Part shown: positions 195-61,311 of the stretch, piece by piece
How the letters are laid out: each line of letters begins with the position of its first letter
Numbering within the stretch: position 1 is the stretch's first letter
IMG/VR virus record: IMGVR_UViG_3300021404_000012
Location: 1 to 61,874 of that record
Length of the DNA stretch: 61,874 nucleotides
Direction: 5' to 3' (one strand)
Source: a virus
Lineage: Duplodnaviria > Caudoviricetes
Program-made: the position numbers and the translations under genes
Notes under the pieces: model-generated
Told to the model about the DNA's origin: nothing
What the model saw: the letters and a program-made list of their open reading frames with translations, nothing else
Databases searched by the model: none

Positions 195-413
195 ACGCTC
201 CACACTTGGGTTCTCGCTCCTGATCGGGCTCGCGCTCACCTAAGGGGTTCTCGCAAGTACGAGGGCTCGCGCATGAGGCTGGGTTCTCGCAGTTTAATGG
301 GCTCGCGCGTGGGGCAGGGTTCTCGCTGATTGTGGGGCTCGCGCATTGACTAGGGTTCTCGCAGTACAAAAGGCTCACGCCGCTCGTTGGGTTCTCGCCA
401 GCACTTTGGGCTT
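195..413 (-). ncRNA. TIGR-like dual-repeat guide array (6 units) downstream of the helicase
   Basis: Alternating GCGCGAGCCC and GCGAGAACCC(C) repeats separated by 8-nt variable spacers, 36-37 nt period. Confidence 0.9.
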
Positions 414-7242: not shown

Positions 7243-7519
7243 CTTCACACTCCGTCTGTTCGCCCCGGTGAACCGTCAGTGGCACCGACATGCGATGATG
7301 TTCAAAGGAAACTTGGTAGTAGCCGGTCATGCCGTCTGTCGTCATCCCGACCACTTCAACACTGGTCTCGCCTCCCCAGTTTATTTTTGATAACTCGATC
7401 GCGAACGCCTCCGCTGCCTCCTTCATCCACTGCTTCACCACTACGGTAGTGGTTTGGTCGTTGGTGAAGCGCCAGTACGGCGCTTCACTTGGGTCGTAGA
7501 TGCCGGGGTCCAGGGTCAT
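7229..7519 (-). CDS. Hypothetical protein
   Basis: ORF in operon, ATGA coupling. Confidence 0.55.
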   Translation of the reverse strand: MTLDPGIYDPSEAPYWRFTNDQTTTVVVKQWMKEAAEAFAIELSKINWGGETSVEVVGMTTDGMTGYYQVSFEHHRMSVPLTVHRGEQTECEDAKL

Positions 7520-7707: not shown

Positions 7708-9098
7708 ACCGTGATCCTCACGGTGTCGCCCCACGGACCCTTGATCTCCGTGGTCGCGCACCAGATGACTGGGTACTTGGGCTCTTGCGGCCAGCTACTG
7801 GGCATCATGTCCGTGAGGTACACGAGGGTATCAGGAATAATATTTCTTTCAGACAACCACTCGAACGCCGGCTGGAACTCCGTGCCGCCGCCACCGGGCG
7901 AACCCTCCTGGCGGATATGCGACAGCTCGTCGAGGCTGCGCGCCTCGTCCACCCGCTGCACCTTGGCGTCGCACCACATGAGCATGACCCTTTTGGGCTT
8001 ACAATCATTCAGCACGCCGCCCACCTCGGCAAAGCACGCGGCGAGTTCCTTCTCACTAACCGAGCCGGAATTGTCCACGACGCACACCACCAGCTCGGCG
8101 CCGTAGCCGCGCCGCCCCGGCATATAGACCATCGGGTTTAAAACTATCCTCCTTCTGTTCGGGTGGTCCCAGGTTTCCCGCCGGTTGCCGACTTTACCGG
8201 TTAGAACTATTCTAATGTGTTCACGCCAGTTAACTTGCGGCTGGAGGATTTCGTCGATCATCCGCTTGATGTTCGCCGGCAGCTTGCCCGCCCGCTTCGC
8301 CGCCTGCTCGGCACGGGCGATGGCCTCCCGAAACTCGACCTCGTGCGGCACGTCGTCTACCCCCTGCCCATCGCGCTCGGGCGGCAGCACCTCGTCAAAG
8401 CGCCCGTTGTTCGCCTGGGCCTGCTTGTCGCGGTCGCCGCCCTTCTTGCCGGTCGCCTCGCCGTAGGTGTTCGGCCTAGGCAATTGCTGTTGCTGACCAT
8501 GTTGCTGACCACTGGCACTACCGGTAGTCGGCTGGCCTTCCTCATCGCTTTCCTCGTCACCCTGTCCACCTTGCGGCGGGCAATTCGGCTGCGGGATCGT
8601 CGGCACCGGCGGGGGAGGCGGCGGTGGGGGAAGTTTCTTGTAGAGCTTGACGTAGACATCCTCGGCCAGCTCGCTGGCCTTGATGTCGGGGTCGTACAGC
8701 CACGCGGGATTGCACGTCCCGATCTTGCTGGCCACGAGGTCGGCGTTGATCACGTAGTCCGCCGCCGTGTTGAACAGGTCCTGCATGAAAGGCAGCCCCT
8801 TCAGCTCGCCGGCCTGAAGGTAGTAGCGCATCCGTATCGGGTGCTTGTAGATGACGTGATACACCTCGTGCGCCAGGGCAAAGCACCGCTCCGTGGGCTT
8901 GAGCGTGGCGAAGTAGGCCGGGTTCACGAAGATGCGCTTGGCGTCCGTCGCGAGCGTCTTGATGGCGCGTGTCGGCCACATCTCCATCTTGTCGTAAAAG
9001 TAATACGAGAAGAACGGAGCGTAGATCACAAAGGAAGCCATGGCTTCCTCCATGATCCGCTGATCGGTGCTGTTGAGGGTTACTTTCGGCGGTAACAT
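7704..9098 (-). CDS. Metallopeptidase plus vWA domain protein (DUF2201-like)
   Basis: HEVYH zincin motif, Pro/Gln/acidic linker, VVDNSGSV MIDAS motif, GGGTEF, YLTD. Confidence 0.88.
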   Translation of the reverse strand: MLPPKVTLNSTDQRIMEEAMASFVIYAPFFSYYFYDKMEMWPTRAIKTLATDAKRIFVNPAYFATLKPTERCFALAHEVYHVIYKHPIRMRYYLQAGELKGLPFMQDLFNTAADYVINADLVASKIGTCNPAWLYDPDIKASELAEDVYVKLYKKLPPPPPPPPVPTIPQPNCPPQGGQGDEESDEEGQPTTGSASGQQHGQQQQLPRPNTYGEATGKKGGDRDKQAQANNGRFDEVLPPERDGQGVDDVPHEVEFREAIARAEQAAKRAGKLPANIKRMIDEILQPQVNWREHIRIVLTGKVGNRRETWDHPNRRRIVLNPMVYMPGRRGYGAELVVCVVDNSGSVSEKELAACFAEVGGVLNDCKPKRVMLMWCDAKVQRVDEARSLDELSHIRQEGSPGGGGTEFQPAFEWLSERNIIPDTLVYLTDMMPSSWPQEPKYPVIWCATTEIKGPWGDTVRITV

Positions 9099-9109
9099 TT
9101 CACACTCCA

Positions 9110-9487
9110 TTACTCGGGTTGGTTGGGTAGATCATCGATTAAATCGGCGTGCGGCATCTCAGGTTGATCGGGCAACTCGACCTGTTCGAGTTCCTCAAGT
9201 TCAACCTCGGTCCAAGCCTCCATCCAGTTGGTGTAGGCTTGCCCCGCGTCGCCGTCCTGCCACTTCTCGGAACGTTCCTCGTAGTAGTCCTCCATCTTCT
9301 GTGCGATCTCGTCGCGAAACGTCACCGCGTCGCCGAGCACACCGTTGTATTCGTCGATCGCCAAGCCGAGCCGCTCGTGCGCGCCCTCAAAGGCTATCCA
9401 CGCTTCCTCGATTGCGTTACCTCGAAGGTTCAACACCTCCACAAACAACTGACGTTGCGTCATCTGGTCCTTGCTGAGCCTCTGCAT
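9110..9487 (-). CDS. Hypothetical acidic protein
   Basis: 125-aa ORF containing ERSEKWQDGDAGQAY. Confidence 0.7.
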   Translation of the reverse strand: MQRLSKDQMTQRQLFVEVLNLRGNAIEEAWIAFEGAHERLGLAIDEYNGVLGDAVTFRDEIAQKMEDYYEERSEKWQDGDAGQAYTNWMEAWTEVELEELEQVELPDQPEMPHADLIDDLPNQPE

Positions 9488-9490
9488 TTT

Positions 9491-10411
9491 TTACAGCCCC
9501 CACTTCGCCAGCTTGTCGATGATCTTCTGGCTCTCCGAAGCGGTCTCCTTGCGCAGACCGTCGTTCTTGCGCAGCGTCTCCGCGTCGAGCCCGGTCAGCA
9601 GCACGTCGATATCACGAGCGATTTCATCTGCCAGTGTGTTTCCTGTAACGTTCCACCCTGGCAACATCGTGATCAGGTCACGCACCGCCTCGATGGACGC
9701 CGCCTTGAAGATTTTACCCTCGCCCTCCTCGTCGGTGGTCAGCCTATCGAGCAAATGCTCGATAGGCGCCCTGACGCGCCGCCACATCTCCTCCTGCACG
9801 ATCTGCGCCTGGGTGTCCTGGCGCCCCTTGAGGTGCTTGCTGAAGCGCTCCAGCATGTGCTCGTCCATCGCGCCGAACTGCTCGCTGTCGGGCACGGGCC
9901 AGAAGTCGAAGTGGACGTTGAACTTCGCCCGCACCTGTTCAGGTGTCGGGTAGCTCATATCGGTCACCATCGTCCCGAGGTTGCCTTTGGCCTGGATCAC
10001 CAGGTCAGGATAGACCGCGCAGAACTCGTCGAGTTCGTTGTAGGCTTCGCGCCGGCGCTCGCCCAGCTCGGCCTCGTATGTATGCACCAAAAGATGGGGC
10101 AATAAACGTGGACCCTCGACCCGCGACGCCCGCCGGTTGCTGACCCACGGCAGGGTCAGCTCCTTGTGCCGCGCCTGCACCGCCTTGAAGGCGTTGCGGG
10201 TGCGCTTCAACTGGCTGTCGGCTCCGGTCATCAGGTACTTGATGACCTTACCCACGTCGCCCCGCGCGCCGTGGGTGCGCTTCACCTCGTCCATGAGGTC
10301 GGGGTCGTTCTGCGAAGCCTCCCACATGGAGAGGCTCACGTCAGCCAGCATGGCCGCTTCCCTGATCGCTTTTGTTAAGTCTTTACTCGATATGGGGGAG
10401 ATGTCGTTCAC
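9491..10411 (-). CDS. DUF3150-like protein
   Basis: Lies between AAA and vWA genes; TLPW...GPRLLP and YPTPEQVRAKF motifs; probable GTG start 10411 with GGAG RBS. Confidence 0.6.
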   Translation of the reverse strand: MNDISPISSKDLTKAIREAAMLADVSLSMWEASQNDPDLMDEVKRTHGARGDVGKVIKYLMTGADSQLKRTRNAFKAVQARHKELTLPWVSNRRASRVEGPRLLPHLLVHTYEAELGERRREAYNELDEFCAVYPDLVIQAKGNLGTMVTDMSYPTPEQVRAKFNVHFDFWPVPDSEQFGAMDEHMLERFSKHLKGRQDTQAQIVQEEMWRRVRAPIEHLLDRLTTDEEGEGKIFKAASIEAVRDLITMLPGWNVTGNTLADEIARDIDVLLTGLDAETLRKNDGLRKETASESQKIIDKLAKWGL

Positions 10412-10514
10412 TTGAGTTACTCCGGTTTCACTACCAGTAGTGGTGGGGGAAAAGCCGCATCGGCCTTTGCACTGGTTGGGACACTGGCTAAGCGTCCCGA
10501 ACCCGAGCCAGCAC

Positions 10515-11723
10515 TTAACTTCTCGCGGCACGAAGAATGTCCTTGTTGTCGACCAGCCACTGCTGGACCTCACGCAGGGGCATCAGCGCCTTGGCACGAC
10601 GGATGTGCGCCATCGTCTGCTCGGTGTCCTTGTCCTCGTGACCGCCCAGCATCACGTCGAACGCGATACGCTGCATCTCGGTGCTGAAGCGCAGCACATA
10701 GCGGGTGATGGCTTGGGCTGTATCTTCAGTAACTTGGTCTGCCAACATGTACGAGCACACCATCTGCGCGTCCTTACCCGCCGGCACCTTCGCAGAACGG
10801 GGGTTCTGGAAGATGTCTTCCAACGCCGGTATCTCGTTGGCAAAGCGCATGTGGGTGAAGAACTGCCCTTGGGCGTGCTTGCCGATCCAGCCCTGGCAGA
10901 TTTCCGCCGCCATCAGGGTCATCGGCAGCTTGTCGTTGGCGATGTCCTGCTCGGTCATCATCACCCGCAGGTCCGCGTCCATCTTGCACAGCGTGCGTGC
11001 GGTGCAGAACGGCTCGGGCTTGTCGGGGACTTCCCTTGGAAAAACAATATCGGGTTGCCTCGCAATGAACGCCCTGGTCAGGATGTGCGGGCGATCGTCG
11101 TCGGGCAGGTCCTCAAGGTGACGTAACAAACAACCCGGATCACCCTCGATCTCCATCAAGCCGTGACGGTTGATGATGTGCATCAGCTCGCGGTTGGTAC
11201 CCGACCGGTCGCTGGTCCGGTTCTTGGCACCGACCACCCGCCATGCAGGAGGGAGAAAATGCGTGCCGACGTTGCCGTCGAGGATCAGCGGCGCCGCCGC
11301 CTTGCGCACGTCCTCGTCCGCCTGACCCCACTCGTCGAGAAAAACCACCCCCACTTCAGGAACCTCACCGTCCCAAGTGCCGGGAGGGTAAACCTCCCCG
11401 TCGGGGGTGAAGACCCAGATGTTGTCAACGTCCGGCATCCACGGGGGTAAAGAAAAAACAGTTCTTGGAACCCCGCCCTTGTCGTCCTTGATGGGGATCA
11501 TAAAACCCCGGATGTCGGGGGTCGTCAGGTTGGCGATCATCTCGATGACTAAACCGACTGGGCAAGCCAGTCGTTTAGCGAGACGAGCGCACATTTGTTC
11601 TATACTCTTGCTCTTGCCGACACCGGGTCCCGACTGCAGCATGTACCCGTTGGCACGGGTGCCCCTGCGGATCGCGTCGATATGGGTGTCGATGAGATGC
11701 GCTCTTGCTTGTTCGATATTCAT
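10515..11723 (-). CDS. MoxR-like AAA+ ATPase
   Basis: SGPGVGKS Walker A, VVFLDEW Walker B, sensor N (GAKNR), TARTL. Confidence 0.88.
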   Translation of the reverse strand: MNIEQARAHLIDTHIDAIRRGTRANGYMLQSGPGVGKSKSIEQMCARLAKRLACPVGLVIEMIANLTTPDIRGFMIPIKDDKGGVPRTVFSLPPWMPDVDNIWVFTPDGEVYPPGTWDGEVPEVGVVFLDEWGQADEDVRKAAAPLILDGNVGTHFLPPAWRVVGAKNRTSDRSGTNRELMHIINRHGLMEIEGDPGCLLRHLEDLPDDDRPHILTRAFIARQPDIVFPREVPDKPEPFCTARTLCKMDADLRVMMTEQDIANDKLPMTLMAAEICQGWIGKHAQGQFFTHMRFANEIPALEDIFQNPRSAKVPAGKDAQMVCSYMLADQVTEDTAQAITRYVLRFSTEMQRIAFDVMLGGHEDKDTEQTMAHIRRAKALMPLREVQQWLVDNKDILRAARS

Positions 11724-11786
11724 CGTAGTCACACTCTCCACTACCGGTAGTCACCAGGGACAATCCCTGGTAACGCCCTGTGTATA

Positions 11787-11815
11787 ATAGTACAATCCTC
11801 ATAGTTTCAGGTCAA
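11787..11815 (-). promoter_or_regulatory. Sigma70-type promoter for the AAA/vWA/replication operon, overlapped by a 21-bp operator
   Basis: TTGACC-N17-TACTAT. Confidence 0.75.
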
Positions 11816-11882
11816 TAAAAATCTTTGACGGTAAAAACAGGGTAAAATTAATCGCTGTGGAATATCAGATAGTTATCGGAAA

Positions 11883-11919
11883 CTGTCACCGACACTACTG
11901 GTAGTGGTGCCGGTGACAG
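11883..11919 (-). terminator. Hairpin closing the 3' end of the main guide array
   Basis: CTGTCACCG...CGGTGACAG stem enclosing a CACTACTGGTAGTG motif. Confidence 0.6.
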
Positions 11920-12385
11920 CTCGCGCTCGAGCAAGGGGTTCTCGCTATTCATGGGGCTCGCGCAGATCGTTGGGGTTCTCGCCAACTGCTGGGCTCGCGC
12001 CTCATCAAGGGTTTTCCGCTAGGTAAAGGGCTCGCGCCGGGGTAAGGGGTTCTCGCCTAACGTTGGGCTCGCGCTTGATCAAGGGTTCTCGCAAGGCACC
12101 AGGCTCGCGCTCATCGTAGGGGTCATCGCAATAAAGGGGGCTCGCGCAAATCGTGGGGGTTGTCGCTTATGACCGGGCTCGCGCTTAGGGCTGGGTTTCT
12201 CGCTCAAGATTGGGCTCGCGCCCACGTTTGGGTTCTCGCTACTCGTAGGGCTCGCGCAATTTCAAGGGTTTGTCGCTCCAGATTGGGCTCACGCTCCTGC
12301 TAGGGGTTCTCGCTGATGGTTGGGGCTCGCGCCGCTCGAAGGGGTTATCGCAACTATTAAGGCTCGCGCCTACTTTCGGGTTGTC
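11919..12385 (-). ncRNA. Main TIGR-like dual-repeat guide array (12 units plus a partial unit) downstream of the Tas-like gene
   Basis: 36-37-nt period, two alternating repeats, 8-nt unique spacers. Confidence 0.93.
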
Positions 12386-12484
12386 TTGATCGCGCGATGC
12401 GACAGCCAAGCCCATTGGTAAATTTCACACGGACACGCAAATGGATGCCGCCTCCATGATGCTCGCATCCTTATTCTCCTGGGC

Positions 12485-13372
12485 TTATGCAGGGATCGGG
12501 GGTGGGATGTAGTCGACGTGGTGCAAATGACCGATGGGGTACGGCACCGGCGACGCTTGCCCGGTGCGGATCAGCCACACTTCGTTCATGTGAGACAAAA
12601 ATAACTTCACCGCCCAGCGTCGTGCCCTCGCGTCTATCTGCGAGGGTGGCAGCCGGCCCTCGGCGTAATGCTTATAAGTGGGTGTATCCTTGGCAAAACG
12701 AGGCAGCCACTCCTTCGCGGTCTCGACCCGTTTGCCGGTATCGGACATCATCTGTTCAAAGGCTTTTCGCTCGCGGTATTTTCTTCCGTAGAAGCAATCT
12801 TCACGGTTCGAGAGTTTCATAAACGACTGCCCCGCGTGCCAGCATATGGTCTTGAGCTGCACGTTGAAGGGGCGCACCTGGCCCGCCTTCCACGGTTTCT
12901 GGTCGGCTGCGGCCCACCCGACGAATGAATTGATATGACCAGCCGTGGGTCTGGGCACCTCCAGATGCGCGAGAATGCCCGCGCTGATCACCGGCCCGAT
13001 CCCGACGATCTGCCGCATCCAACTACCCATTATATGGGCAGTTGTATAGGTATCCAGGGCGCGCTTGATCTGGCTCTCTAAAATTCTCGACTGATTAAAA
13101 AGCCAGTCGATTAGGACGTGGGGTTCTGGCGTTGTCAGAACTTCACCAGCATCTTCCTCGACCACGACGCCCCTCGCCATCGCGCGGATTTGGTTCGCCG
13201 CGCGCTTGCGGTTTTCCTGCGATGTGTAATACGCATCGACCAAAAATCTGGCTTCTTTTGGACCCATCGTGCGGGCGGCGTTGGCTAAATCTCTGGTTAA
13301 CCTGATGACAGACGGCGCGTGCTCGATGATTTCCTCGTCATCGACATAGGTCGCATAGGCTGGCGATGCCAT
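12485..13372 (-). CDS. Nop-domain/IS110-related RNA-guided DNA-binding protein (TasA-like, no RuvC or HNH)
   Basis: Coiled-coil region then GIGPVISAGILAHL (IS110 Transposase_20-like HhH), PFNVQLKT, YGRKYRERK, IDARARRWAVKLFLSH; no N-terminal DEDD RuvC; flanked on both sides by dual-spacer arrays. Confidence 0.8.
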   Translation of the reverse strand: MASPAYATYVDDEEIIEHAPSVIRLTRDLANAARTMGPKEARFLVDAYYTSQENRKRAANQIRAMARGVVVEEDAGEVLTTPEPHVLIDWLFNQSRILESQIKRALDTYTTAHIMGSWMRQIVGIGPVISAGILAHLEVPRPTAGHINSFVGWAAADQKPWKAGQVRPFNVQLKTICWHAGQSFMKLSNREDCFYGRKYRERKAFEQMMSDTGKRVETAKEWLPRFAKDTPTYKHYAEGRLPPSQIDARARRWAVKLFLSHMNEVWLIRTGQASPVPYPIGHLHHVDYIPPPIPA

Positions 13373-13405
13373 GTTGTTCCCTCCCACTTAACTACGGTAG
13401 TGGGA

Positions 13406-13436
13406 TAAGTAAGAACTCCATAGTATGACACGTCAA
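13406..13436 (-). promoter_or_regulatory. Putative promoter and 21-bp operator for the Tas-like gene
   Basis: TTGACG -35 at 13436-13431; operator copy TAAGTAAGA-act-CCATAGTAT at 13406-13426. Confidence 0.5.
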
Positions 13437-13438
13437 CG

Positions 13439-13467
13439 AAAAAAAGGGCCGGTCTCTCGACCGGCCC
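13439..13467 (-). terminator. Rho-independent terminator ending the upstream guide array
   Basis: GGGCCGGTC-gaga-GACCGGCCC followed by a T tract on the minus strand. Confidence 0.85.
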
Positions 13468-13470
13468 CCC

Positions 13471-13765
13471 GCGCTGTACAAAGGGGTCATCGCGCGTTGT
13501 AGGGCTCGCGCCCGACGGAGGGTTCTCGCGGTGATACGGGCTCGCGCCAGTCATCGGGGTTATCGCGGAGGATTGGGCTCGCGCTCGTAGTCGGGGTCAT
13601 CGCTTCTTGAGGGGCTCGCGCCGCTTGTCGGGGTTATCGCTCATGTGCGGGCTCGCGCTCGTTGCAGGGGTTGTCGCATATAGCTGGGCTCGCGCTCACC
13701 TTAAGGGTTCTCGTCGTCAACTGGGCTCGCGCACCAGAAAGGGGTTATCGCTTGCTTCAAGGCTC
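13471..13765 (-). ncRNA. TIGR-like guide array (8 units) upstream of the Tas-like gene
   Basis: Same alternating repeats and 8-nt spacers. Confidence 0.92.
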
Positions 13766-13794
13766 AAGGTGCTTGCGCTCTCGTTATACAACAC

Positions 13795-14349
13795 TCACGG
13801 CGCCGGCCACAACCCGACCCACCCGACGAAGGTCATGTCTCCCCTCAGAATGTTCAACAACTGCGGGAGTTCGTCGATGTTCATCCCACGCATGAAGCCA
13901 CGCATGATGCGGGGGTTGCGAAAATTAAAGCAGTTAAAAACCCTACCGTTCAATCCAGTGCAGGGTACGCGGTGCAGCACCGGCCCCCCATCCAACAGCT
14001 TGATGACAAGCGGGATTACGCATAACAGCGGCAAGAGCACAAGTGTTAATATTGATGCAGCAAAGACATCGAACGCGCGGCTTGAAATTAACGGTTGCGT
14101 GGCCCAGGTGGTTAAATCCTCGATATACACCTGCTCGTCTACCGTATCCGCGCTCAACTGCACGATGACGCCGTACTCGTACAGCATCTGAAGCGGGCAG
14201 TTCATGTTCAACAGCGCAATCAACGCTGTATTCGCGTCGCAGATCGCAACGTCGGGATTGATGCCCGTGCGGTCCACCCAACCGCGAGCCAGCTCGATCA
14301 GCCCGTCGCTGTATTCGAGGTCGATTTCAAACGAGACACGGTGGCGCAT
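13795..14349 (-). CDS. Fusion of an unknown N-terminal domain with a truncated bacterial sugar transferase (WcaJ/PglC-like phosphoglycosyl transferase) fragment
   Basis: SRAFDV..TM helix..GGPVL...GLNGRVF..F.FR...IDELPQLLNILRGDMTFVG; ends where GPRP normally follows. Confidence 0.65.
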   Translation of the reverse strand: MRHRVSFEIDLEYSDGLIELARGWVDRTGINPDVAICDANTALIALLNMNCPLQMLYEYGVIVQLSADTVDEQVYIEDLTTWATQPLISSRAFDVFAASILTLVLLPLLCVIPLVIKLLDGGPVLHRVPCTGLNGRVFNCFNFRNPRIMRGFMRGMNIDELPQLLNILRGDMTFVGWVGLWPAP

Positions 14350-14466
14350 GGGGGATGCCTCCGAGGTTCGTGCTCGGATAAAAACAACGCCCCTGGCGGG
14401 CGTTGTCAAACAATTTATCGGCTTATAGATGTTATCTTTGTAATGCTGGCGGACGCCAGCATAAAC

Positions 14467-14506
14467 AAAAAAACCCGGCAGCGCAAGGCTGCCGGGTTGG
14501 TTTTTT
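14467..14506. terminator. Bidirectional rho-independent terminator
   Basis: AACCCGGCAGC-gcaag-GCTGCCGGGTT with A tract upstream and T tract downstream. Confidence 0.8.
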
Positions 14507-14529
14507 AACTACTACCGGTAGTGGGACTG

Positions 14530-14823
14530 TCAGTGGCAGTCGACCGTCCACCCTACAGGCAAGGAAATTATCCCGCCGTTGCAGTCACGCACCAGCTTGT
14601 GCGGCAGCACCGCTGGTGCAGGCAGCGGTGCTGCCGTGACGGGGCTGCGCAGCATATCACGCACCCGCTGCTCGTTCTGCAGTTCTTCGAGCTGTATGCT
14701 CAGGTCCTGGGCATGTTCCTCGATCGCATCCTCGATGTCATCGAGACGCGATGTCAGGCTCTCGGCGTGCGCGACCTGGGTTAACCCCAGGATCGCGACC
14801 CCAGCCAGTAGAAATTTCCTCAT
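14530..14823 (-). CDS. Small secreted protein
   Basis: Signal peptide MRKFLLAGVAILGLTQVAHA. Confidence 0.7.
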   Translation of the reverse strand: MRKFLLAGVAILGLTQVAHAESLTSRLDDIEDAIEEHAQDLSIQLEELQNEQRVRDMLRSPVTAAPLPAPAVLPHKLVRDCNGGIISLPVGWTVDCH

Positions 14824-15278
14824 CAGAACCCTCCCGGCGCGCACTGGAGGCAGGTATACCCCAGCTCACGCCACATATCGACCACCTGCTGGCGGTCATC
14901 GACAAACAGAATGGGTTCATACCCATCCTTCAACATGGCCGCGAGCAGGTCCTTCTTACACTTGTAGTCGGGCCGGTGGTCGCCCGCTTTGCGCATGTAG
15001 AGCGCGTCGTACATCAGGCCCGCACGCTCCAGCCACGCCTCGGTCTGCTCGCGACATTCATCTGATCGCCCCGACATGATCACCATCTTGCAGCCGGTGT
15101 AGCTGCGGAACGTCGAACACCTGAGCGTATTATACAGCTCGGCGACGGGCTCGATCACCGCATCCTCGCCGCACGCAGCGAAGAAACCCGACCAATCCTT
15201 ATCGGGCTTCAAGACGTACCACAGCCGGTGGGTAGGATCGGCTAGCGTCCCGTCGAGATCAAACACGTAACATTTCAT
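14823..15278 (-). CDS. HAD-superfamily phosphatase (T4 PNK 3'-phosphatase-like)
   Basis: FDLDGTLA, SGR, MRKAGDHRPD, FVDDRQQVVDMWR. Confidence 0.9.
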   Translation of the reverse strand: MKCYVFDLDGTLADPTHRLWYVLKPDKDWSGFFAACGEDAVIEPVAELYNTLRCSTFRSYTGCKMVIMSGRSDECREQTEAWLERAGLMYDALYMRKAGDHRPDYKCKKDLLAAMLKDGYEPILFVDDRQQVVDMWRELGYTCLQCAPGGF

Positions 15279-15281
15279 TAC

Positions 15282-15491
15282 TCACCATCCTTTCGCACAC
15301 GCGATCAGCACAACCGCGATGAACCCGAAAATGAACACCATCTGCGCCATTTCCCGACGCTCGTACACCCACCAATACGCCGCGACGAGCCGTGCCCATA
15401 GCCATCGGCTGATATGCCACACAAGACAGAACACCACCACATCCACCGCCGCAACGACGTAACCCTCTAGTGACGGAGCCTCGTACACCAT
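15282..15491 (-). CDS. Small membrane protein
   Basis: Two hydrophobic segments; GGAGG RBS. Confidence 0.6.
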   Translation of the reverse strand: MVYEAPSLEGYVVAAVDVVVFCLVWHISRWLWARLVAAYWWVYERREMAQMVFIFGFIAVVLIACAKGW

Positions 15492-15545
15492 TCTAATCCT
15501 CCACTACGGTAGTGGAGCGGCGGTTATCCCGCCGCTCCATTGGGT

Positions 15546-16166
15546 TTAATGCTCTAAGTACGGCTGCGTCCGGCTCGTGTCCGGGAGGTTTGTATAAGGT
15601 TGCGTCACACCTGTATAAGGCTGCGTCGTCCCAGGTGTACCAAGGGTCTCGACGATGCACCTGCCCATGTCGTGCATCGCCGCTTCGGAGCCCGCGAGCG
15701 AGCCTTTCCACGAGCCCTCGTTGCCGTCGAAGAAGATCGTTATTTCCCGACCGGTTCGCAACATGTCGAGAAACTCCTTATACCAGTGCTCGCCGCTGCG
15801 CGGGTTGGTGTGATTGTTGAACGTATACTCAAGCATGCTGCCGCCTTGGGGGTTGCGGAAGCCGGTCATCGGGTACTGCACCACGGGTGCGTTGTCGACC
15901 TGTACCCGCACGTTCACCTGGGTGCCGTCAGGGATGTTCCAGCTTTGCTTCCAGACGTGAAAAAACAGCGATTGAGCTACACCCATCTTCACCGCGAACA
16001 TGCGCTCGGGACCCCTGGTGATAGCCGCGCATTGCGGCTTACCATTGGTGTCCAAAGCCTGCAACGTCTCCCACGAGCCGTAGTAATGTCGGATGTCGTT
16101 CGCGTGCGCCTGACCCGACCCAAATAACACAGTCGAAAGTGCTGTGCTCATCAACAACTTACGCAT
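15546..16166 (-). CDS. Secreted/periplasmic protein
   Basis: Signal peptide ending AHA; YGSW...C...SLAGS..AM...C pattern; C-terminal TQPY repeats. Confidence 0.7.
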   Translation of the reverse strand: MRKLLMSTALSTVLFGSGQAHANDIRHYYGSWETLQALDTNGKPQCAAITRGPERMFAVKMGVAQSLFFHVWKQSWNIPDGTQVNVRVQVDNAPVVQYPMTGFRNPQGGSMLEYTFNNHTNPRSGEHWYKEFLDMLRTGREITIFFDGNEGSWKGSLAGSEAAMHDMGRCIVETLGTPGTTQPYTGVTQPYTNLPDTSRTQPYLEH

Positions 16167-16256
16167 AGTCTGTCACCTTTCACACTCAGTTGATGCAGTC
16201 ACTACCAGTAGTGCTGCTAGCTGCCCACCGTCGTGGCGATGGGCAGTTGAGCAGAA

Positions 16257-16511
16257 CTACACCGAGTACGCCGCGCTGCCGCACTCGGGACAATTCTTGG
16301 GGATGTAGAACTCGTTGAGGCACTCGCCGCAACGGTACTTCACCTCACCCTGAGGCTTCTTTTTTAACACTTTTCGCAAAACTTCCATGCGCTCACGCGG
16401 GATCGCGTAGGCGTTACAGTCCGCCGGCCCCCGAAAACTCGGTGCGCGAGACAGCAGCACGAGCGTGTCGAACTGTTCCTTGGTAAGTTTCAAGGTAACC
16501 ATTTTAGACAC
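16257..16511 (-). CDS. Small zinc-ribbon protein
   Basis: CGEC...CPECG. Confidence 0.65.
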   Translation of the reverse strand: MSKMVTLKLTKEQFDTLVLLSRAPSFRGPADCNAYAIPRERMEVLRKVLKKKPQGEVKYRCGECLNEFYIPKNCPECGSAAYSV

Positions 16512-16779
16512 CTTTCTCGTTGTAACCGTTGATGGTCAGGTTGATCAGTAAGCACACATTGGCCGGGTTGAGGTACAACCCGAACGCACGCACGATCAGC
16601 TCGGGGTGCTTGTTGTTTCTCGACCAGCGAAAGGAACCCTCGTTCACTTTCACCATCATGTCGGGATGCGCGTCGTAACGCAGGCACGCCGCCGCGAGCG
16701 CCTCGCGCTGGGTGGGATACCAGCGGTCGCGCTGTTGACCGTACTCATCGTTGAGACGCCACAGCATTACATGTTCCAT
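16504..16779 (-). CDS. Hypothetical protein
   Basis: GGAGTGTGA RBS. Confidence 0.65.
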   Translation of the reverse strand: MEHVMLWRLNDEYGQQRDRWYPTQREALAAACLRYDAHPDMMVKVNEGSFRWSRNNKHPELIVRAFGLYLNPANVCLLINLTINGYNEKGV

Positions 16780-16835
16780 AAGTCACACTCCTGAAAGTGC
16801 CGCCACTACCGCGTAGTGGCAGTGGCGGCGGTTTA

Positions 16836-16985
16836 TTAGAAACAGGTGGTGTTGCAGTATTGTTGATTACCGATAGTGTAACAACTCGTATGACATGAAT
16901 ACGCCTGCGCCTTGGATGCGGCGAAACCGCAGAGCCCGAGCCCGACGATGGCGAACAGCGCAACACCCGTAATGTACTTAACCAT
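16836..16985 (-). CDS. Small secreted cysteine-rich peptide (49 aa)
   Basis: MVKYITGVALFAIVGLGLCGFAASKAQA-YSCHTSCYTIGNQQYCNTTCF; below the ORF-track cutoff. Confidence 0.65.
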   Translation of the reverse strand: MVKYITGVALFAIVGLGLCGFAASKAQAYSCHTSCYTIGNQQYCNTTCF

Positions 16986-17081
16986 TTCAGTCACTTTCAC
17001 TAACACCAGGGGATTTCCTGGCAGCCGAAAACCCCGACGCCATCACGCGTTCGGGGTTCGGGGTTAGATGTTACACCGCAG

Positions 17082-17276
17082 TCATCTTACAGTCCTTCCC
17101 TCGGCGAGGCGGCGCGCCTCGATCCTGCGGATGGTGTCGCGATGCCCCTCGATGGCAGTACGGACATTGCGTCCGTACTCACCAAAGCGGTTGTCACCTT
17201 GACCCAGAGTGTACTCAAGGCGCCGGATCGCTGCGTGCGCCTCGCGATAAAGTTTTTCCTCCGCGTCGTATTTCAT
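17082..17276 (-). CDS. Hypothetical protein
   Basis: GGAGAGTGTGAC RBS. Confidence 0.6.
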   Translation of the reverse strand: MKYDAEEKLYREAHAAIRRLEYTLGQGDNRFGEYGRNVRTAIEGHRDTIRRIEARRLAEGRTVR

Positions 17277-17278
17277 GG

Positions 17279-17359
17279 TCACACTCTCCACATCCCGAAA
17301 ATGGTCATCAATATCGCCGCAAACGCGATCAGGTGTATGTACGGTGCTAGGTCACTCAT
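17279..17359 (-). CDS. Small membrane peptide (26 aa)
   Basis: MSDLAPYIHLIAFAAILMTIFGMWRV; GGAG RBS. Confidence 0.4.
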   Translation of the reverse strand: MSDLAPYIHLIAFAAILMTIFGMWRV

Positions 17360-17423
17360 CACTCACTCCACTACGGTAGTGGCGGTGAATAGTACCATCG
17401 TACTTTCACCGAACAAATCGTGG

Positions 17424-17603
17424 TTACGCGCGCTTAGTCGCTGCGACCTGGCGTGCTGCCGTGGCGATCACCCGACTGGCGAACAGGGGGTCGTGCTCGT
17501 GGTTGTCCGCGAGCGCCTGAAGCTCCTCACGAGACATGCCGTACATGCCCAATGCACGTATGGCTGCCCAAAGATCATAGTTGTTAATCTCTCTCACACT
17601 CAT
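17424..17603 (-). CDS. Hypothetical protein
   Basis: GGAG RBS; first gene after the promoter at ~17700. Confidence 0.55.
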   Translation of the reverse strand: MSVREINNYDLWAAIRALGMYGMSREELQALADNHEHDPLFASRVIATAARQVAATKRA

Positions 17604-17688
17604 CTCGACCAACTCCAAAAAATAAATCGCCGACCACTACCGTAGTGGCGGTCCGTTCTCGGTACACGCAACCTGCGAGTAACGAGAT

Positions 17689-17720
17689 CATTAGTTTAAA
17701 CTAATGGTTGAGTTTGTCAA
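17689..17720 (-). promoter_or_regulatory. Early promoter with a perfect 18-bp palindrome over the -10 box
   Basis: TTGACA-N16-TAAACT; palindrome CATTAGTTTAAACTAATG at 17689-17706. Confidence 0.65.
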
Positions 17721-17899
17721 TAGAAAATATTAGGGGCATATTTTCAGGTGGTCTCGACGCGGGGGATATTTGTGGGTGGTGTCCTCGTGATGACGCACGT
17801 AAATGCGCCGCCGCGACGTGGTGCCGCAACGCAGAATTTATCTGTATGCTACGACGGCACTACAAAGTTGAGTTGGCTAACTGCCTTATACCAAACGAA

Positions 17900-18480
17900 T
17901 AATTAGTGCCAACAATTCTAGGGTTGAGTTTAAAAATATCCTCGACTACTGGTAGTTGGTTGTAATGGCGTTTTGGCGAATTAGGACATATTTAAAAGTG
18001 GCGTAATTTCCTCATATAATATCAACGTCTCAAGTGCATTATTCCATTATTCCATAAGATTTTTCACCATAAGACCATACACACACCCCCAATCTCGAAA
18101 CGCATCGAATGTAATCGAGCACTCGATTTCACGTATCCTCTTGTGCGGAAAAACGGGGTAGAAAAGTGGAATAATTAGGCTAACCCCCTGCTATATATAT
18201 ATATATTATTCCATTTAAAATAAAATAATAATGGCCTAATTGCCGTCGCGCCGTTTGTTTACGGTTGACCGTGATCGTTCTCGGGATAGCATGCGTGACA
18301 ACTGGCATTAATCCACATCGGGAGCCCGCGCGAAATGGCTCAATGCCCTAATCCAGTCTCAGCGTGCATTAGGTATCGGTAGATTATTTAATGAAATCAA
18401 TGCGTTAAGATGCAATTGGCCGGTTACCCACGATAAAAACCCACATCAATTGATCCATGTCGCACTACGGGTAGTGGATC
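17900..18480. other. AT-rich non-coding region, candidate replication origin
   Basis: No credible ORF; (TA)n tract at ~18192-18206; repeated TTATTCCA and AATTAGG. Confidence 0.4.
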
Positions 18481-18519
18481 ATTGCGCGAACTTTCACGCG
18501 CGCGAAAGATCGTGGGCAC

Positions 18520-18553
18520 AAAAAAACCCCGCACGGCGCAAGCCGTGCGGGGT
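18520..18553 (-). terminator. Rho-independent terminator
   Basis: CCCCGCACGGC-ttgc-GCCGTGCGGGG followed by a T tract. Confidence 0.85.
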
Positions 18554-18572
18554 CGAGTGTGAGCGTCGCTGA

Positions 18573-19532
18573 CTAGTCAGTCAGCTTGCCGACGCCAGCG
18601 TTCGCCTTGGCGTTCGCCGCAGCCCTACGTAGGTCGGGCTTGCCGCGCATCTTCGCAGCGCGCTCTGCCTGCCGCTTCTCAGCGGCGGCAGCGTCTTCGC
18701 GAGCCTGGCGCGCCGCTTCGAGCCGCTTGTAGTCGATACCTTTCAGGTATTCCATGACGACATCCCACTCGTCGCAACCTTCCGGGTATTCGTCGGCAAC
18801 GATCTCCAAGCTCTTGAGAGCTTGCCGCACGAGGTTGGCGCAGCGCTTGGGATCGCGGCGCAACTTCTTGCCCCGAGCCTCACAGAAATCCTCAAGGCTA
18901 TCAAAGATAGCCTCGTCCTCGGGTGTCGTTGCCCCAGCACGGGCGTCGAGCAAACCGCCTTTCTGGAACACGGCATGGTAGGACTTAGCGAAGCTATCAT
19001 GCAGCGGGGTATCGACGTCATCCTTTTTGAAGGATTTGCCAGCCGCTTTCGCCTCGTCTCTTGCCACTTTTGTGGCAGCAGTTTCCTCTGCCCACATCTC
19101 ACGCGCTCTCGTGAGATCGCTCTCGACGTGCTCACGGGCTTTCGGGTGGATGGCACGCTCGATCTCGCTACGCAATTGGGTGAGCGTGTCCTCGGTCGAA
19201 TTGCGCTCGTCACGATATGCGGCGATTGCGAGATCGACGCCTTGCATAACGTACTGAACTTCGTTCCACTCGTTTTCGATCGCCGCCTTGACTATCGTCA
19301 AGATGAGCGACACGCGGGTTCCATCGTGCGCATCGCTAGCCTTGTCAAAATCCGACTTGGCTAAACCTTTGGTTTGATCCGACTTGGCATACTTGCCAAT
19401 GATGTCATCCATGACCGCTTTAGCGGCAGTCGTGATGGGGTCGACGGGCTTGGGTGTCGCCACCGCGTCAGGCGTCGGCTTCGCCTCGTCTGTGACGAGC
19501 TGAACGGGGGACTTCGTGTTTGTGTTTGCCAT
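18573..19532 (-). CDS. Hypothetical helical early protein
   Basis: 319-aa Ala/Lys/Glu-rich ORF with its own terminator. Confidence 0.75.
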   Translation of the reverse strand: MANTNTKSPVQLVTDEAKPTPDAVATPKPVDPITTAAKAVMDDIIGKYAKSDQTKGLAKSDFDKASDAHDGTRVSLILTIVKAAIENEWNEVQYVMQGVDLAIAAYRDERNSTEDTLTQLRSEIERAIHPKAREHVESDLTRAREMWAEETAATKVARDEAKAAGKSFKKDDVDTPLHDSFAKSYHAVFQKGGLLDARAGATTPEDEAIFDSLEDFCEARGKKLRRDPKRCANLVRQALKSLEIVADEYPEGCDEWDVVMEYLKGIDYKRLEAARQAREDAAAAEKRQAERAAKMRGKPDLRRAAANAKANAGVGKLTD

Positions 19533-19873
19533 GATTGCGAACTCACACTTTGGTTGTCGGGACGATGTTGTCCCATCAATGGCGAAGCTGATTTGAACTA
19601 CCGGTAGTGCCACCTTCACCGTCACAAAGTGACGGTGCGGACCTGGCCCTTGTGCATGATGCGTGCGTCATTATGCGTGCATCCCGTGCGCGTCACGAGG
19701 CTTCGGCCAGCCCCCGGCCCCGGTCTGTCCATGGCCCCCGGCCTGGCTCCCGCCGCCACCTGCAGCGCCTAGACGAGAGTGACCCAAAAAGTGAAGTTAA
19801 CTTTTATTAACGCCACTTCACCACTACGGTAGTGCGGTACGTCGCACCGGCAGCCCTAGGAACTGCCGGTGCC

Positions 19874-20201
19874 GCGCGTCACTCTGGGTTTCACGCCTAA
19901 AAAAGGGCTCGCGCCATCTGTTGGGTTCAATCGCACATCCTTGGGCTCGCGCCGCATCAAGGGTTTTCCGCTCACCTAAGGGCTTACGCTACTTGCCGGG
20001 TTTTCCGCTTTCCATTTGGTTCGCGCGTTTCTTCGGGGTTCTCGCACAAGGTCGGGCTCGCGCTGCCTGTCGGGTTCTCGCTCAGGACTGGGCTAAATCG
20101 AACCGCCGGCGCCGCCGGCGGCTCACACGCAGAGTGTCGGGGTTTTCGCCTGTAACTGGGTTCGCGCAATACATAGGGTTCAACGCGTGTCCTGAGGGCT
20201 C
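19874..20201 (-). ncRNA. TIGR-like guide array (6+2 units, split by a GC hairpin at 20103-20121)
   Basis: Alternating repeats (loop variants GCGGAAAACCC, GCGATTGAACCC) with 8-nt spacers; 3' hairpin at 19843-19872. Confidence 0.85.
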
Positions 20202-20341
20202 CGTGGTTGTTCACCACGGTTCACAGAATATCACCGTCGTAAATACAGGTCTACAAGTTTCGTATTTTTGAGATTGAGGATTTTCAATAACTTAACGTTT
20301 CTCTTGCGCGCGAATGACATTCTCGTTACGGTTTTATTCCC

Positions 20342-21034
20342 ATGATCCTCCCCCCAGACGGTCAAGGCCACATCCGGTTCGCCGCGATCTCGCGCACGGC
20401 GCTGGGCACGCGCTGCGCGCGGCTAAACGATCTGCAAAAATTCTACTCTCGATTACCTAAACTACAGTGCGACAAGGTAATTCACCTCGGCGGGGTTACC
20501 GAGACGGCGGCGCCCGAACTCGCGAAAATTTACCCCCGCGTCGAGGGCGTGACCACCGTCGAGCTGGCAAACGGCAGCTTCGCCCCCTGCGGCGGGCGTA
20601 TGCTGCGGGAAGGCCGCGCCGACTGGGTTACCACCCCAAATAAGATACCCCTCGCCCTACGGGCTCTGGAGGGCATTAAAAACGAAACGGTCCTGTGTCT
20701 TTATTATGACCGGTCGGGGGATCGGGGTTTATCTGAAATTGCCGATGAGGTGTATGAGCGCGATAGCGAGCGGGGGCGAATGGAAGGTGGTAACACTTCG
20801 TTTGTGATCTTGGTCGGGGGCCAGCGCCGGCTGGCGCACCGGTACTTTCAGAATACCACGCGCACCACCTGCTTTGTCGGCAGCGTCGGGGTGTTCGACG
20901 CCCGCGCCAGTGTCAAGAACCCGCCGGCGCCCTACGGCGGCAGCATCGTCGAGGTGAAGCTGCACGGTGACGGCAGCTTGGACACCTGCACGCTGACCTT
21001 TCGCGACATGTCTGGGGGGATGCCGGATGTCTGA
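20342..21034 (+). CDS. Degenerate calcineurin-like metallophosphoesterase-fold protein
   Basis: IRFAAISRTALG, VIHLGG, ILVGGQR and GGSIVEV fall at the positions of the DxH, GD and GHxH motifs, but the metal ligands are lost. Confidence 0.5.
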   Translation: MILPPDGQGHIRFAAISRTALGTRCARLNDLQKFYSRLPKLQCDKVIHLGGVTETAAPELAKIYPRVEGVTTVELANGSFAPCGGRMLREGRADWVTTPNKIPLALRALEGIKNETVLCLYYDRSGDRGLSEIADEVYERDSERGRMEGGNTSFVILVGGQRRLAHRYFQNTTRTTCFVGSVGVFDARASVKNPPAPYGGSIVEVKLHGDGSLDTCTLTFRDMSGGMPDV

Positions 21035-23470: not shown

Positions 23471-24883
23471 TCACGTCCACGCCGCTGATGAATACGGCGC
23501 TAACCCTGTGCCTTGCGTAGGGTTAAAGAAGCGGCGTTCTCGCATGAGAACCCTGCCGGTGAGGTTGCTCTGGGTGCCCAGGCAGAAATACTGGAGCGCG
23601 TCGCAGATATCCGACCAGGGGTGTAATTTCTCAGGTATGTCGTCGAGGACGCCGTCGCGGCGCCGCCTGTATCGATACTTATTACCGAGGGCGGAAATCA
23701 GGATCGGGCACCCGATCCTGCTTATTTGCAGGGCCGGCTGGCCCATCACCTGCTGTCTGAGGAATTTCTCGACGGCCAGCAACCGCATATCAATTACATT
23801 CGTACTCGCAGGGTAGGCTAAAAATCCCTCCTCCTTCAACACGTCGAAGGGGGTTTCTTCCCTGGTTTGCGACCGTTGGCGACCCGCAGGATCACCCACC
23901 ACAAAAACTCTTTTCCCCGCAAACGGCGGCGCCAGTAAGACCGGCTTGAGGTGCTCCTGCAGCATCTGCACCAGCCCCATGCCCTCGGTGACGATCTCCT
24001 TCATAATTATGGCTCTGCCGTAATTATCGTGCTGCCCGATCAGCGCGCACGGCGTGCGTCCGAAGTCCAAACCGATCATCAGGGGTTTGTTTGGATTAAC
24101 TGTTACACTCATGTCCTTGACGTGGGTGGGCGCGTGGAAGGTTCGCCTGAACACCGCCTGGCCGGCGTTGCTCTCGCCCCACTGGCTCTCGACGTGAACC
24201 AGGGACCACTCAACATCCTTGTCCCCCATTAATTCATCATAGTAGCCGTCAGGAAGGTTCTCGACGTTCTCGGCGTCGGGGCCGATGCCTGACGGCTGGT
24301 GATACAGCGCCCATGACGGGTGCGGATTTAATACCAGCCGGTCGTGGTAGGGACTTTCTGTATCCCAGGGATTTGTATCGGCGATGATCCCGCGCCAAGT
24401 GGCGCCGCCGAGGGCCTTGGAGGGATATCTTCCACACCGACCCAGTAGTGGGCGGATGATGTCGAACGGCACTTCACGCAGCTCGTTGATCCACGCGCCG
24501 GTGAGCTGCATTGAGAGTAACCTTCGGACATCTTCCTTGTTGTCCAACGGCAGTAGCATCCAGTCGCTGTGAACGCCTGTCCCATCCGGCAGGTGCAGCC
24601 TCACCTGCAGCGTGCTGTCGGTGACATAGTAGTGAACCGTCTCGCCCATGTACTGGATCGCGTCGGCTAGGACGGTCTGGCGGAGTTGCTGCAGCGTGTT
24701 TCTGATGAGCGCGAAGCGGGTGTAGCGGACGCCGTTGCTCGGCTCCTGCTCGATCGCCCGCCGCAGCAGCTCCATAATGCAGCCCATGGTCTTGCCCGAA
24801 CCGAGGGGGCCGACCAGCACGCGGATGACGTGTTGATCATCCAGCATGAAGTCCTGCACGGTTGGCGGGGGCTGGAAGAACAT
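23471..24883 (-). CDS. terL: Terminase large subunit
   Basis: GPLGSGKT Walker A, AWINE Walker B, DTNP, GLDFGRTP RNase H fold, GDPAG, DALQY. Confidence 0.93.
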   Translation of the reverse strand: MFFQPPPTVQDFMLDDQHVIRVLVGPLGSGKTMGCIMELLRRAIEQEPSNGVRYTRFALIRNTLQQLRQTVLADAIQYMGETVHYYVTDSTLQVRLHLPDGTGVHSDWMLLPLDNKEDVRRLLSMQLTGAWINELREVPFDIIRPLLGRCGRYPSKALGGATWRGIIADTNPWDTESPYHDRLVLNPHPSWALYHQPSGIGPDAENVENLPDGYYDELMGDKDVEWSLVHVESQWGESNAGQAVFRRTFHAPTHVKDMSVTVNPNKPLMIGLDFGRTPCALIGQHDNYGRAIIMKEIVTEGMGLVQMLQEHLKPVLLAPPFAGKRVFVVGDPAGRQRSQTREETPFDVLKEEGFLAYPASTNVIDMRLLAVEKFLRQQVMGQPALQISRIGCPILISALGNKYRYRRRRDGVLDDIPEKLHPWSDICDALQYFCLGTQSNLTGRVLMRERRFFNPTQGTGLAPYSSAAWT

Positions 24884-24954: not shown

Positions 24955-25521
24955 TCATACTTCGACATCCTCAAACTCGGCGTCGTCCTCGTCGGGACGC
25001 AGCGAGATCGACTGCCGGGGCGGCGGGATTTCATCGGCTTCCACTACGGTAGTGGCGCGGTAATCCTTGCGGCCCCCGGCGAAGTTGATGGTCAGGTTGA
25101 ACGCGGCGCCGAGGGACTTTTGCTGCGCGTCCTTGGCGCCGGCGGGCGCCCCATCCACGCCGGCTCCCCTCTGGAATTGCTTAAAACCGTCGATCCGCTG
25201 CGCGATCGGTGTCCTCGGGTCGTTGATCAGCGCCGTCATCGGGATGATTAATTGTTCAGTGGCGTGCATGAACTTGTTGCGTATCCGCACCTCGGTTGCT
25301 TCGTCGCTCAAGTAGAGCGCCCGCAGTTTGCGCGCCTCGTAGACAATAACCGGGTGCAGCCGCAGGTATTCCTTGAGCGCATCCTTGCCGTCGAGCCCGT
25401 AGCGGTGGGCGATCGTCTCGGCGTCGTGCATCCCCATCGCGAGGTCGTACTGCAGCCGCAGTATCAGCGCGTCTTCCTGCGCCGGGTTCGGGTCGTAGAT
25501 CGAAGGATAAGGGCTGCTCAT
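24955..25521 (-). CDS. Probable terminase small subunit
   Basis: Immediately upstream of terL; N-terminal HTH-like region, FNLTINF strand, acidic tail. Confidence 0.65.
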   Translation of the reverse strand: MSSPYPSIYDPNPAQEDALILRLQYDLAMGMHDAETIAHRYGLDGKDALKEYLRLHPVIVYEARKLRALYLSDEATEVRIRNKFMHATEQLIIPMTALINDPRTPIAQRIDGFKQFQRGAGVDGAPAGAKDAQQKSLGAAFNLTINFAGGRKDYRATTVVEADEIPPPRQSISLRPDEDDAEFEDVEV

Positions 25522-30752: not shown

Positions 30753-30824
30753 GTCGAAAGTACGACCCTGGTACTTTTGTCACTACGGTAGTGGAGGGGG
30801 GCGACCCCCTCCCAGGAGGCCGGC

Positions 30825-53863: not shown

Positions 53864-53965
53864 CCCTACCTCGGGCGAGAACCCCTAAAGAAGCGCGAGC
53901 CCTGTTGGCAGCGCGAACCCAGCTACAGGCGCGAGCCCCGGAGGAGGTGCCAACCCCCGTAACAA
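53861..53965 (+). ncRNA. TIGR-like guide array (about 3 units) at the end of the virion operon
   Basis: AGCCC-N8-GCGAGAACCC-N8-GCGCGAGCCC-N8-GCGCGAACCC-N8-GCGCGAGCCC. Confidence 0.8.
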
Positions 53966-61269: not shown

Positions 61270-61311
61270 GGGGGAGCCTCATGTTTGAAAGTATGAGACT
61301 GTTACTTTCAC

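Follow-up and report, generated by a model that had tools for sequence, protein, structure and literature searches.

A terminal TIGR guide that resembles the start of the adjacent ATPase gene in a TasA-encoding phage: a possible self-target

In a phage genome of 61,874 nucleotides (the window, i.e., the whole stretch of DNA that was analysed), the terminal guides of two TIGR arrays match, imperfectly, the DNA just downstream of their own array, one of them at the start codon of an ATPase gene. By genome-wide count alone, the match at the ATPase start is at chance level. That two terminal guides match just downstream we do not think to be chance, despite the post hoc nature of the tests. It is possible, if somewhat short of an even bet, that a TasA protein guided in cis by the terminal tigRNA acts as a weak transcription roadblock on the early genes. 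The pair of guide and target is neither conserved nor co-varying in the relatives that were compared. As such, the locus adds one more ordinary member to the TIGR-TasA family.

The phage and its TIGR-TasA locus

The window is the IMG/VR virus record IMGVR_UViG_3300021404_000012, with an estimated completeness of 98%. Of its opening bases, 128/131 are repeated at the record's end, which implies a unique genome of about 61.7 kb. A leftward early/replication block encodes a P-loop ATPase (phrog_1297), a DUF2201 metallopeptidase/VWA protein, a DNA polymerase and a helicase; primase/helicase and integrase genes span the record's ends. The gene content of the early block, including the integrase, is the reason why we call the phage temperate. 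Positions 9000-14000 found no match by blastn in the phage GenBank collection, a TasA profile found no relative in genome contigs, and an Rfam scan of 11000-21000 yielded no family. In one soil sequencing run, 0.09 of the words sampled from the window were present; assembly produced two 151-nt contigs, both outside the candidate site and the terminal unit discussed below.

Tandem-repeat and pattern scans revealed five TIGR dual-repeat arrays in the window, interleaved with the early genes. The components of the locus are:

196..410, minus strand: TIGR array 1; its unit 4 runs from 272 to 236
11883..11919, minus strand: strong hairpin directly 3' of array 2, with a short T run (TTTCC); not called an intrinsic terminator
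11924..12381, minus strand: TIGR array 2, the main array, with 12 complete units and a leading half unit
12485..13372, minus strand: tasA, encoding a Nop-domain protein of 295 aa between arrays 3 and 2, with the C-terminal motif H-x-D-Y-I-P-P-P
13472..13762, minus strand: TIGR array 3, upstream of tasA
about 19875..20200, minus strand: TIGR array 5, which has degenerate repeats and heads the leftward region; terminal unit from 19907 to 19875
53864..53949, plus strand: TIGR array 4, a mini array of one complete unit

All five arrays have a period of 36-38 nt, repeats of 10-11 nt and variable spacers of 8 nt; where a spacer appears to have 9 nt, the surplus base comes first and is a C in nearly all cases. 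On the minus strand the edge repeat reads GCG-CGAG-CCC, i.e., (G)CG-CGAG-CCC, and the loop repeat GCG-A[GTC][AG]A-CCC, with the variants (G)CG-AGAA/ATAA/ACAA/ATGA-CCC. According to the TIGRFinder rules and the parts of PMC12045711 that deal with repeats, box D opens and box C closes both repeats of a dual-repeat array, the gap of the edge repeat has complementary ends and that of the loop repeat is A-rich. The repeats of the window follow this box rule in both kinds of gap. Period, repeats, spacers and box rule all fit; the main array is a genuine TIGR dual-repeat array adjoining tasA.

The arrays end in different ways. Array 3 runs into a strong rho-independent terminator (13470 to 13443, minus strand). 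In arrays 2 and 5 the last repeat is a truncated edge, and the hairpin that follows lacks a good T run. A promoter scan upstream of array 5 found none. In 48 related loci, 88 of the 92 parsed arrays share the strand of tasA; from this orientation and from the terminator after array 3 we infer minus-strand transcription.

The protein encoded between arrays 3 and 2 is, to judge from the comparisons that follow, a TasA, the nuclease-less subtype. As a single sequence it finds chain 9MTY (9mty_A) by phmmer with E=9.3e-7; the structure is TaTasR, according to its paper. A profile of five TasA sequences reaches 8.4e-14 against 9MTY and 7.6e-5 against TasH chains. Pfam yielded no family for TasA at E<=0.01. 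About 87 residues precede the stretch that aligns with TaTasR, and no cysteine is among them; to judge from its sequence, the protein has neither room nor motif for a nuclease domain (no RuvC or HNH N-terminal to Nop). Self-processing dual-repeat Tas proteins have a conserved Tyr/His pair in a C-terminal loop; SpTasH has catalytic residues there. The C-terminal loop motif of the phage protein aligns with the C-terminus of TaTasR, and H285 and Y288 are invariant in 5/5 TasA sequences. An AlphaFold model built from the five-sequence alignment had a mean pLDDT of 45, which is too poor for use.

The terminal guide and the start of the ATPase gene

The features that matter for the match are the following:

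10515..11723, minus strand: P-loop ATPase gene (402 aa, phrog_1297), the first gene past the promoter
11709..11724, minus strand: candidate target, 14/16 identical to spacer A joined to the reverse-complemented spacer B
11787..11815, minus strand: TTGACC-17-TACTAT, a putative sigma-70-like promoter upstream of the ATPase gene, called by consensus match only
11927..11953, minus strand: terminal complete unit of array 2, with spacer A at 11953 to 11946, the loop at 11945 to 11935 and spacer B at 11934 to 11927

The unit at 11927-11953 is flanked by a full edge repeat (11963 to 11954) and a 3'-truncated edge (11926 to 11919). It is indeed the terminal complete unit of its array, as the preliminary description had it, and the match of 14/16 with one silent and one upstream mismatch, also given there, was reproduced exactly from the sequence. 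The upstream mismatch is position -1 of the ATG. The silent one is the third base of codon 4, where the gene has GAA and the guide-derived sequence the synonymous GAG. With the additional C behind box C included, base 11708 extends the match to 15/17.

The candidate site spans positions -1 to +15 of the ATPase gene and lies 200 nt from the end of array 2. The gene does start at the ATG at 11723; the same methionine opens 20 of the 23 aligned homologues, mostly in the form MN[IL]EQA, and GGAGAG stands 8 nt upstream. The proposed target is what it had been taken for, the translation start of the gene that heads the leftward replication block, about 200 nt from the array; this gene is the first one behind the putative sigma-70-like promoter. 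The name "AAA ATPase" is justified only in its second half: the product belongs to a PHROG ATPase family and has a P-loop, whereas for the AAA label Pfam gave no hit.

A TIGR guide pairs with both strands of its target, through spacer A on one and through spacer B on the other, in adjacent segments with a gap of 0-2. The order of the target, spacer A and then the reverse complement of spacer B, follows from the published 8-nt 3' overhang, since together with the C-5 rule no other layout produces it. At the ATPase start the gap is 0 and the spacer order is correct. The way in which the two spacers had been joined in the preliminary description is thus the geometry that the published cleavage rules imply, given minus-strand transcription.

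The pairing itself is less perfect. In spacer B a C stands opposite an A at position 4 from box C (5 with the extra C), and at the central (seed) positions, where each spacer should pair completely, pairing is accordingly broken. In TaTasR positions 4-5 are the "seed", and a mutation there stops cleavage of both strands. SpTasH also uses spacers of 8 nt; a mismatch at its position 5, a position of the MM5 type, prevents a stable heteroduplex, and the portions of the SpTasH work that deal with single mismatches report that most of them strongly reduce cleavage. The mismatch falls into the class of positions that blocks TasR and SpTasH, which makes binding at the phage's own site doubtful. Folding of the RNA leader that read-through would produce gave a strong hairpin after the array, whereas the terminal spacer did not pair convincingly with the ATPase start.

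Frequency of self matches in the window and in relatives

The literature, where it touches on target searches, warns that short TIGR spacers swamp them with false positives. The null used here consisted of pseudo-guides whose spacers A and B were taken from different units, and the genome was searched with the arrays masked. From the window 25 guides were parsed, later 31 with array 5 and edge cases. The 25 guides gave 1 self match with 2 mismatches versus 0.83 expected from 600 mispaired pseudo-guides, the 31 guides 2 versus 0.78. Three control geometries produced 0, 0 and 1 matches at <=2 mismatches, compared with 2 for the correct geometry. Targets with a gap between the spacer halves were all unremarkable: 2 were seen versus 0.62 expected at 1 nt, and 0 versus 0.72 at 2 nt.

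The position of the matches tells more than their number. When the terminal unit of each array was compared with the 400 nt downstream, the minimum numbers of mismatches for the window's five arrays were 7, 2, 6, 2 and 6; of the controls, 0/261 came to <=2 mismatches and one to 3. In the mispaired null, 3/6820 matched at <=2 mismatches within 400 nt on either side of the own array, and the null rate for a match just downstream of the own array on the same strand is about 2e-4 per guide. Of the 16 self matches with <=3 mismatches, 6 lie for the most part in non-coding DNA, where the null predicts 1.37. The matches were already known when the positional tests were framed, and the nominal probabilities therefore overstate the case.

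Two further sites belong to this picture:

17398..17413, plus strand: intergenic 15/16 match to the guide of array 1 unit 4
19776..19791, minus strand: non-coding 14/16 match to the terminal unit of array 5, 84 nt downstream of that array on the same strand

At the array 5 site, the spacer B half matches 8/8. The level of 15/16 was reached by 0/930 pseudo-guides and by one real guide, that of array 1 unit 4; its site, in a putative promoter region, lies just upstream of a TACTAT hexamer and of a palindrome (17368-17382) that precedes the start of a minus-strand gene. The guide of array 1 unit 3 matches 11795-11810, in the spacer region of the ATPase promoter, at 13/16. An array 1 guide also has 3 exact 16-mer matches in IMG/VR, all in unrelated phages of 37-40% GC.

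Relatives were approached through the ATPase and through TasA. A single-query ATPase search of IMG/VR found nothing; with an ATPase profile, 45 loci were obtained from metagenomes and 41 from IMG/VR. The nearest relative has an ATPase (P0003) that is 94% identical, on a contig of 61,898 nt; the comparisons of guides and sites with relatives were made with the DNA of this contig left out. None of the 41 IMG/VR relatives has an array within 5 kb of the ATPase gene. Among the loci of the ATPase profile, only one, L015 (10.9 kb, 53% ATPase identity), is syntenic, with tasA and an array of the same repeats upstream of the ATPase gene; none of its 21 guides comes within 3 mismatches of its own ATPase start or promoter.

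The relatives G001-G003 have TasA proteins of 64-73% identity and the same repeats on a different phage backbone. They show 0 self matches at <=2 mismatches, and the terminal units of their 7 arrays have minimum mismatches of 5-7 in the 400 nt downstream. In IMG/VR the TasA profile found 80 loci, 47 of them with parsable arrays. Left out were 11 loci (duplicates or G001-G003), one unparsed array and the remainder with <4 units; the final family set, L015 included, comprises 34 loci with 663 guides. In their own neighbourhoods these loci gave 2 matches versus 7.1 expected at <=2 mismatches, and 80 versus 73.6 at 3 mismatches. Within 400 nt of the own array, 2 were seen versus 4.07 expected, none of them from a terminal unit. 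There is thus no family-wide habit of self-matching.

Possible roles of the terminal guides

A roadblock of the kind mentioned at the outset would work as follows. tasA and array 2 would form one leftward transcription unit, and transcription would read through past array 2, where the hairpin lacks a proper T run. The pre-tigRNA would be cut into units of about 36 nt, each loading a TasA dimer. The last tigRNA would then place its spacer A on one DNA strand and its spacer B on the other, at the ATPase start codon 200 nt downstream. A DNA-bending TasA complex would sit at this start codon, about 60 nt downstream of the putative promoter, and could obstruct RNA polymerase both on read-through from the array and on transcripts from the ATPase promoter. 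It might thereby gate the early replication operon or feed back on it; the two mismatches would leave the block weak or tunable. At the head of the leftward region, the terminal guide of array 5 could play the same role in gating entry, and the array 1 guide might occlude another early promoter. A precedent is the repression of transcription by TasA and dead Tas nucleases directed to a promoter or into an ORF; the portions of the reports that describe this concern engineered, fully matched targets only (10.64898/2026.09.09.750476; 10.64898/2026.08.11.744272).

A broader formulation would regard the terminal TIGR unit as a cis-acting element, which either gates transcription from the array into the early genes, so that TasA with its arrays would be an RNA-programmed repressor of the lytic programme, or records the capture of a spacer from downstream DNA. 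This we consider rather doubtful.

One alternative is coincidence: the real targets would lie elsewhere, in other mobile elements or in the host, and the self near-matches would be devoid of function. The genome-wide count at chance level speaks for it, as do the absence of any neighbourhood excess in the 34 related loci and of any self-match excess in G001-G003, the lack of conservation in L015, the internal mismatches in all three best self matches, and the post hoc framing of the positional tests. It leaves unexplained, however, that 2/5 terminal guides find a same-strand match <=400 nt downstream, for which the null rate is some 2e-4 each, that the self matches are enriched in non-coding DNA (6 versus 1.37 expected), and that the control geometries are emptier than the correct one. 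We consider coincidence unlikely. The guide might also be aimed at close relatives with a perfectly matching ATPase start, as a means of superinfection exclusion, with an escape change in the phage's own copy. The internal mismatch would suit such a role, being synonymous and at a mismatch-sensitive position; the conserved N-terminus MN[IL]EQA of the homologues makes the ATPase start a stable target; and one G001 guide matches G003 at 15/16. Yet the perfectly matching relatives for which the preliminary description had suggested a search did not turn up. Of the homologue starts, 0/39 are closer than 3 mismatches to the guide (the P0003 contig is not among them), and 0/32 exact 16-mers in IMG/VR, about the number expected by chance, fall on the start of an ATPase homologue; one of these loci has a distant ATPase homologue 1.9 kb away. 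In 709 kb of ATPase-lineage loci, the window's 31 guides found 6 matches with 2 mismatches versus 7.6 expected, and none with <=1. Nor would a guide against relatives account for the terminal position of the matching guides and their adjacency to the target. We regard it as quite improbable.

Least probable of all, in our judgement, is that the matches are mere footprints of spacer origin, i.e., that new 3' units are taken from the DNA just downstream and that the terminal unit resembles its source without any regulation. Both cases are terminal units, with would-be sources 84-200 nt downstream on the same strand, and the discussion sections of the TIGR literature leave open how these arrays grow. 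However, spacer B is inverted relative to the site, unlike the product of a simple duplication or slippage; neither the terminal units of the 7 arrays of G001-G003 nor the 34 related loci show anything similar; and no acquisition genes are known.

Whether as gates or as records of spacer capture, the sites would be the first natural TIGR targets; if the roadblock operated, they would also reveal a rule that a terminal guide acts on the DNA adjoining its own array. Three concrete candidate targets lie in the phage's own early control regions, two of which fit such a rule. The nuclease-less TasA would then be a phage-encoded, RNA-programmed regulator of phage development. Should the version with spacer capture be true, it would show how TIGR arrays grow; should the rule fail, the locus would still illustrate in detail how readily guides of 16 nt produce self matches that look meaningful. 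The TIGR literature consulted here, PMC12045711 included, treats it as an open question what TIGR-Tas systems target in nature and what their biological role is. A literature search yielded no report of a natural TIGR self-target; its scope did not extend to the TIGRSafari catalogue and the supplementary files of the TIGR papers, which may list this locus or family, or searches of spacers for targets.

The nearest functional analogy is found in self-regulating CRISPR guides. The long-form tracrRNA of Cas9 and the crRNA-like RNAs of mini-arrays match the promoter or 5' region of their own locus imperfectly, which leads to binding without destruction and to feedback (cf. 10.1101/2024.10.29.618823). 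An imperfect guide to a promoter or 5' region of the own locus is common to both. The protein family and the guide architecture differ, and the CRISPR circuits are conserved and tested, whereas the phage locus has no nuclease to restrain, lacks conservation and is known from sequence alone. CRISPR systems of types IV and V-M share with it that a mobile element encodes RNA-guided binding that blocks transcription or replication without cutting; according to the portions of PMC12045711 on these systems, they target other elements and not their own carrier.

The closest relatives are the known dual-repeat TIGR-TasA systems, FpTasA and MbTasA (Faure et al. 2025; Xu et al. 2026, preprint). Common to all is a nuclease-less, phage-borne Nop-domain protein and an array of alternating edge and loop repeats, each opened by box D and closed by box C, with two-spacer units of about 36 nt and an end made of a truncated edge and a terminator. 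For the known TasA proteins repression of engineered targets has been demonstrated. The present locus differs from them by its 8-nt spacers, as reported for the SpTasH array, by the boxes (G)CG and CCC, and by the presence of five arrays among the early genes, with a candidate target in the phage's own DNA adjoining the array.

A 15-nt palindrome and the guide matches beside it

A short palindrome recurs throughout the window:

178-192, 7438-7452, 15501-15515, 17368-17382, 17634-17648, 25041-25055, 48516-48530 and others: 15-nt palindrome CCACTACSGTAGTGG

It is present in 14 copies at up to 3 mismatches, against a mean of 1.7 in shuffled sequences, and a looser form occurs 33 times. In the early-gene copies inspected, a -10-like hexamer is followed by the palindrome and then by a ribosome-binding site. 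The palindrome may be an operator or a hairpin of the 5' leader. Certain mycobacteriophages have start-associated sequences that it resembles. L015, the relative that shares the window's order of tasA, array and ATPase gene, is also rich in it (11 copies in 10.9 kb), and it is frequent in some loci with homologues of the ATPase; it is absent from G001-G003, the TasA-bearing relatives with other backbones.

One guide of array 1 (236-272) has several matches of 16-mer type, largely outside genes. The best, 15/16, lies in an intergenic promoter region at 17398-17413; two more, each 13/16, lie in mostly non-coding sequence at 30750-30765 and 61300-61315. The best site adjoins a copy of the palindrome; at least one of the two weaker sites does so too and also has the motif GAAAGTACGA...GGTACT in common with the best site.

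Array 5 and the recurrence of spacers

The fifth array, which was missed by the tandem-repeat scan, lies where the leftward region begins, flanking the divergent intergenic region:

19875-20200: TIGR array 5, with degenerate repeats
19776-19791: site matched by its terminal guide

Several spacers of arrays 1, 3 and 5 are repeated or have near-copies, both within and between arrays; one 8-mer, for example, is used in array 1 as spacer B and in array 5 as spacer A. Such recurrence points to duplication as a mode of array growth.

Related loci and unrelated backbones

In 34 related TasA loci (L062-L138 and L015), guides matched their own 20-kb neighbourhood at up to 2 mismatches only twice, while mispaired controls led us to expect 7.1 matches. 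The deficit hints at selection against self matches in these loci.

G001-G003 have the same TasA and identical repeats as the window and L015, yet on unrelated phage backbones, which suggests that the TIGR-TasA module passes between phage lineages; compared with the window and L015, they are without the ATPase homologue. Between two of these TasA-bearing phages, a guide of G001 (L005-L008) matches G003 at 23992-24007 (L013 3992-4007) in 15 of 16 positions, the sole mismatch being at a spacer end and the site within a coding region. The chance expectation is about 0-0.07 for that pair, 16 pairs having been tested; the site is possibly a cross-phage target, possibly a chance match.
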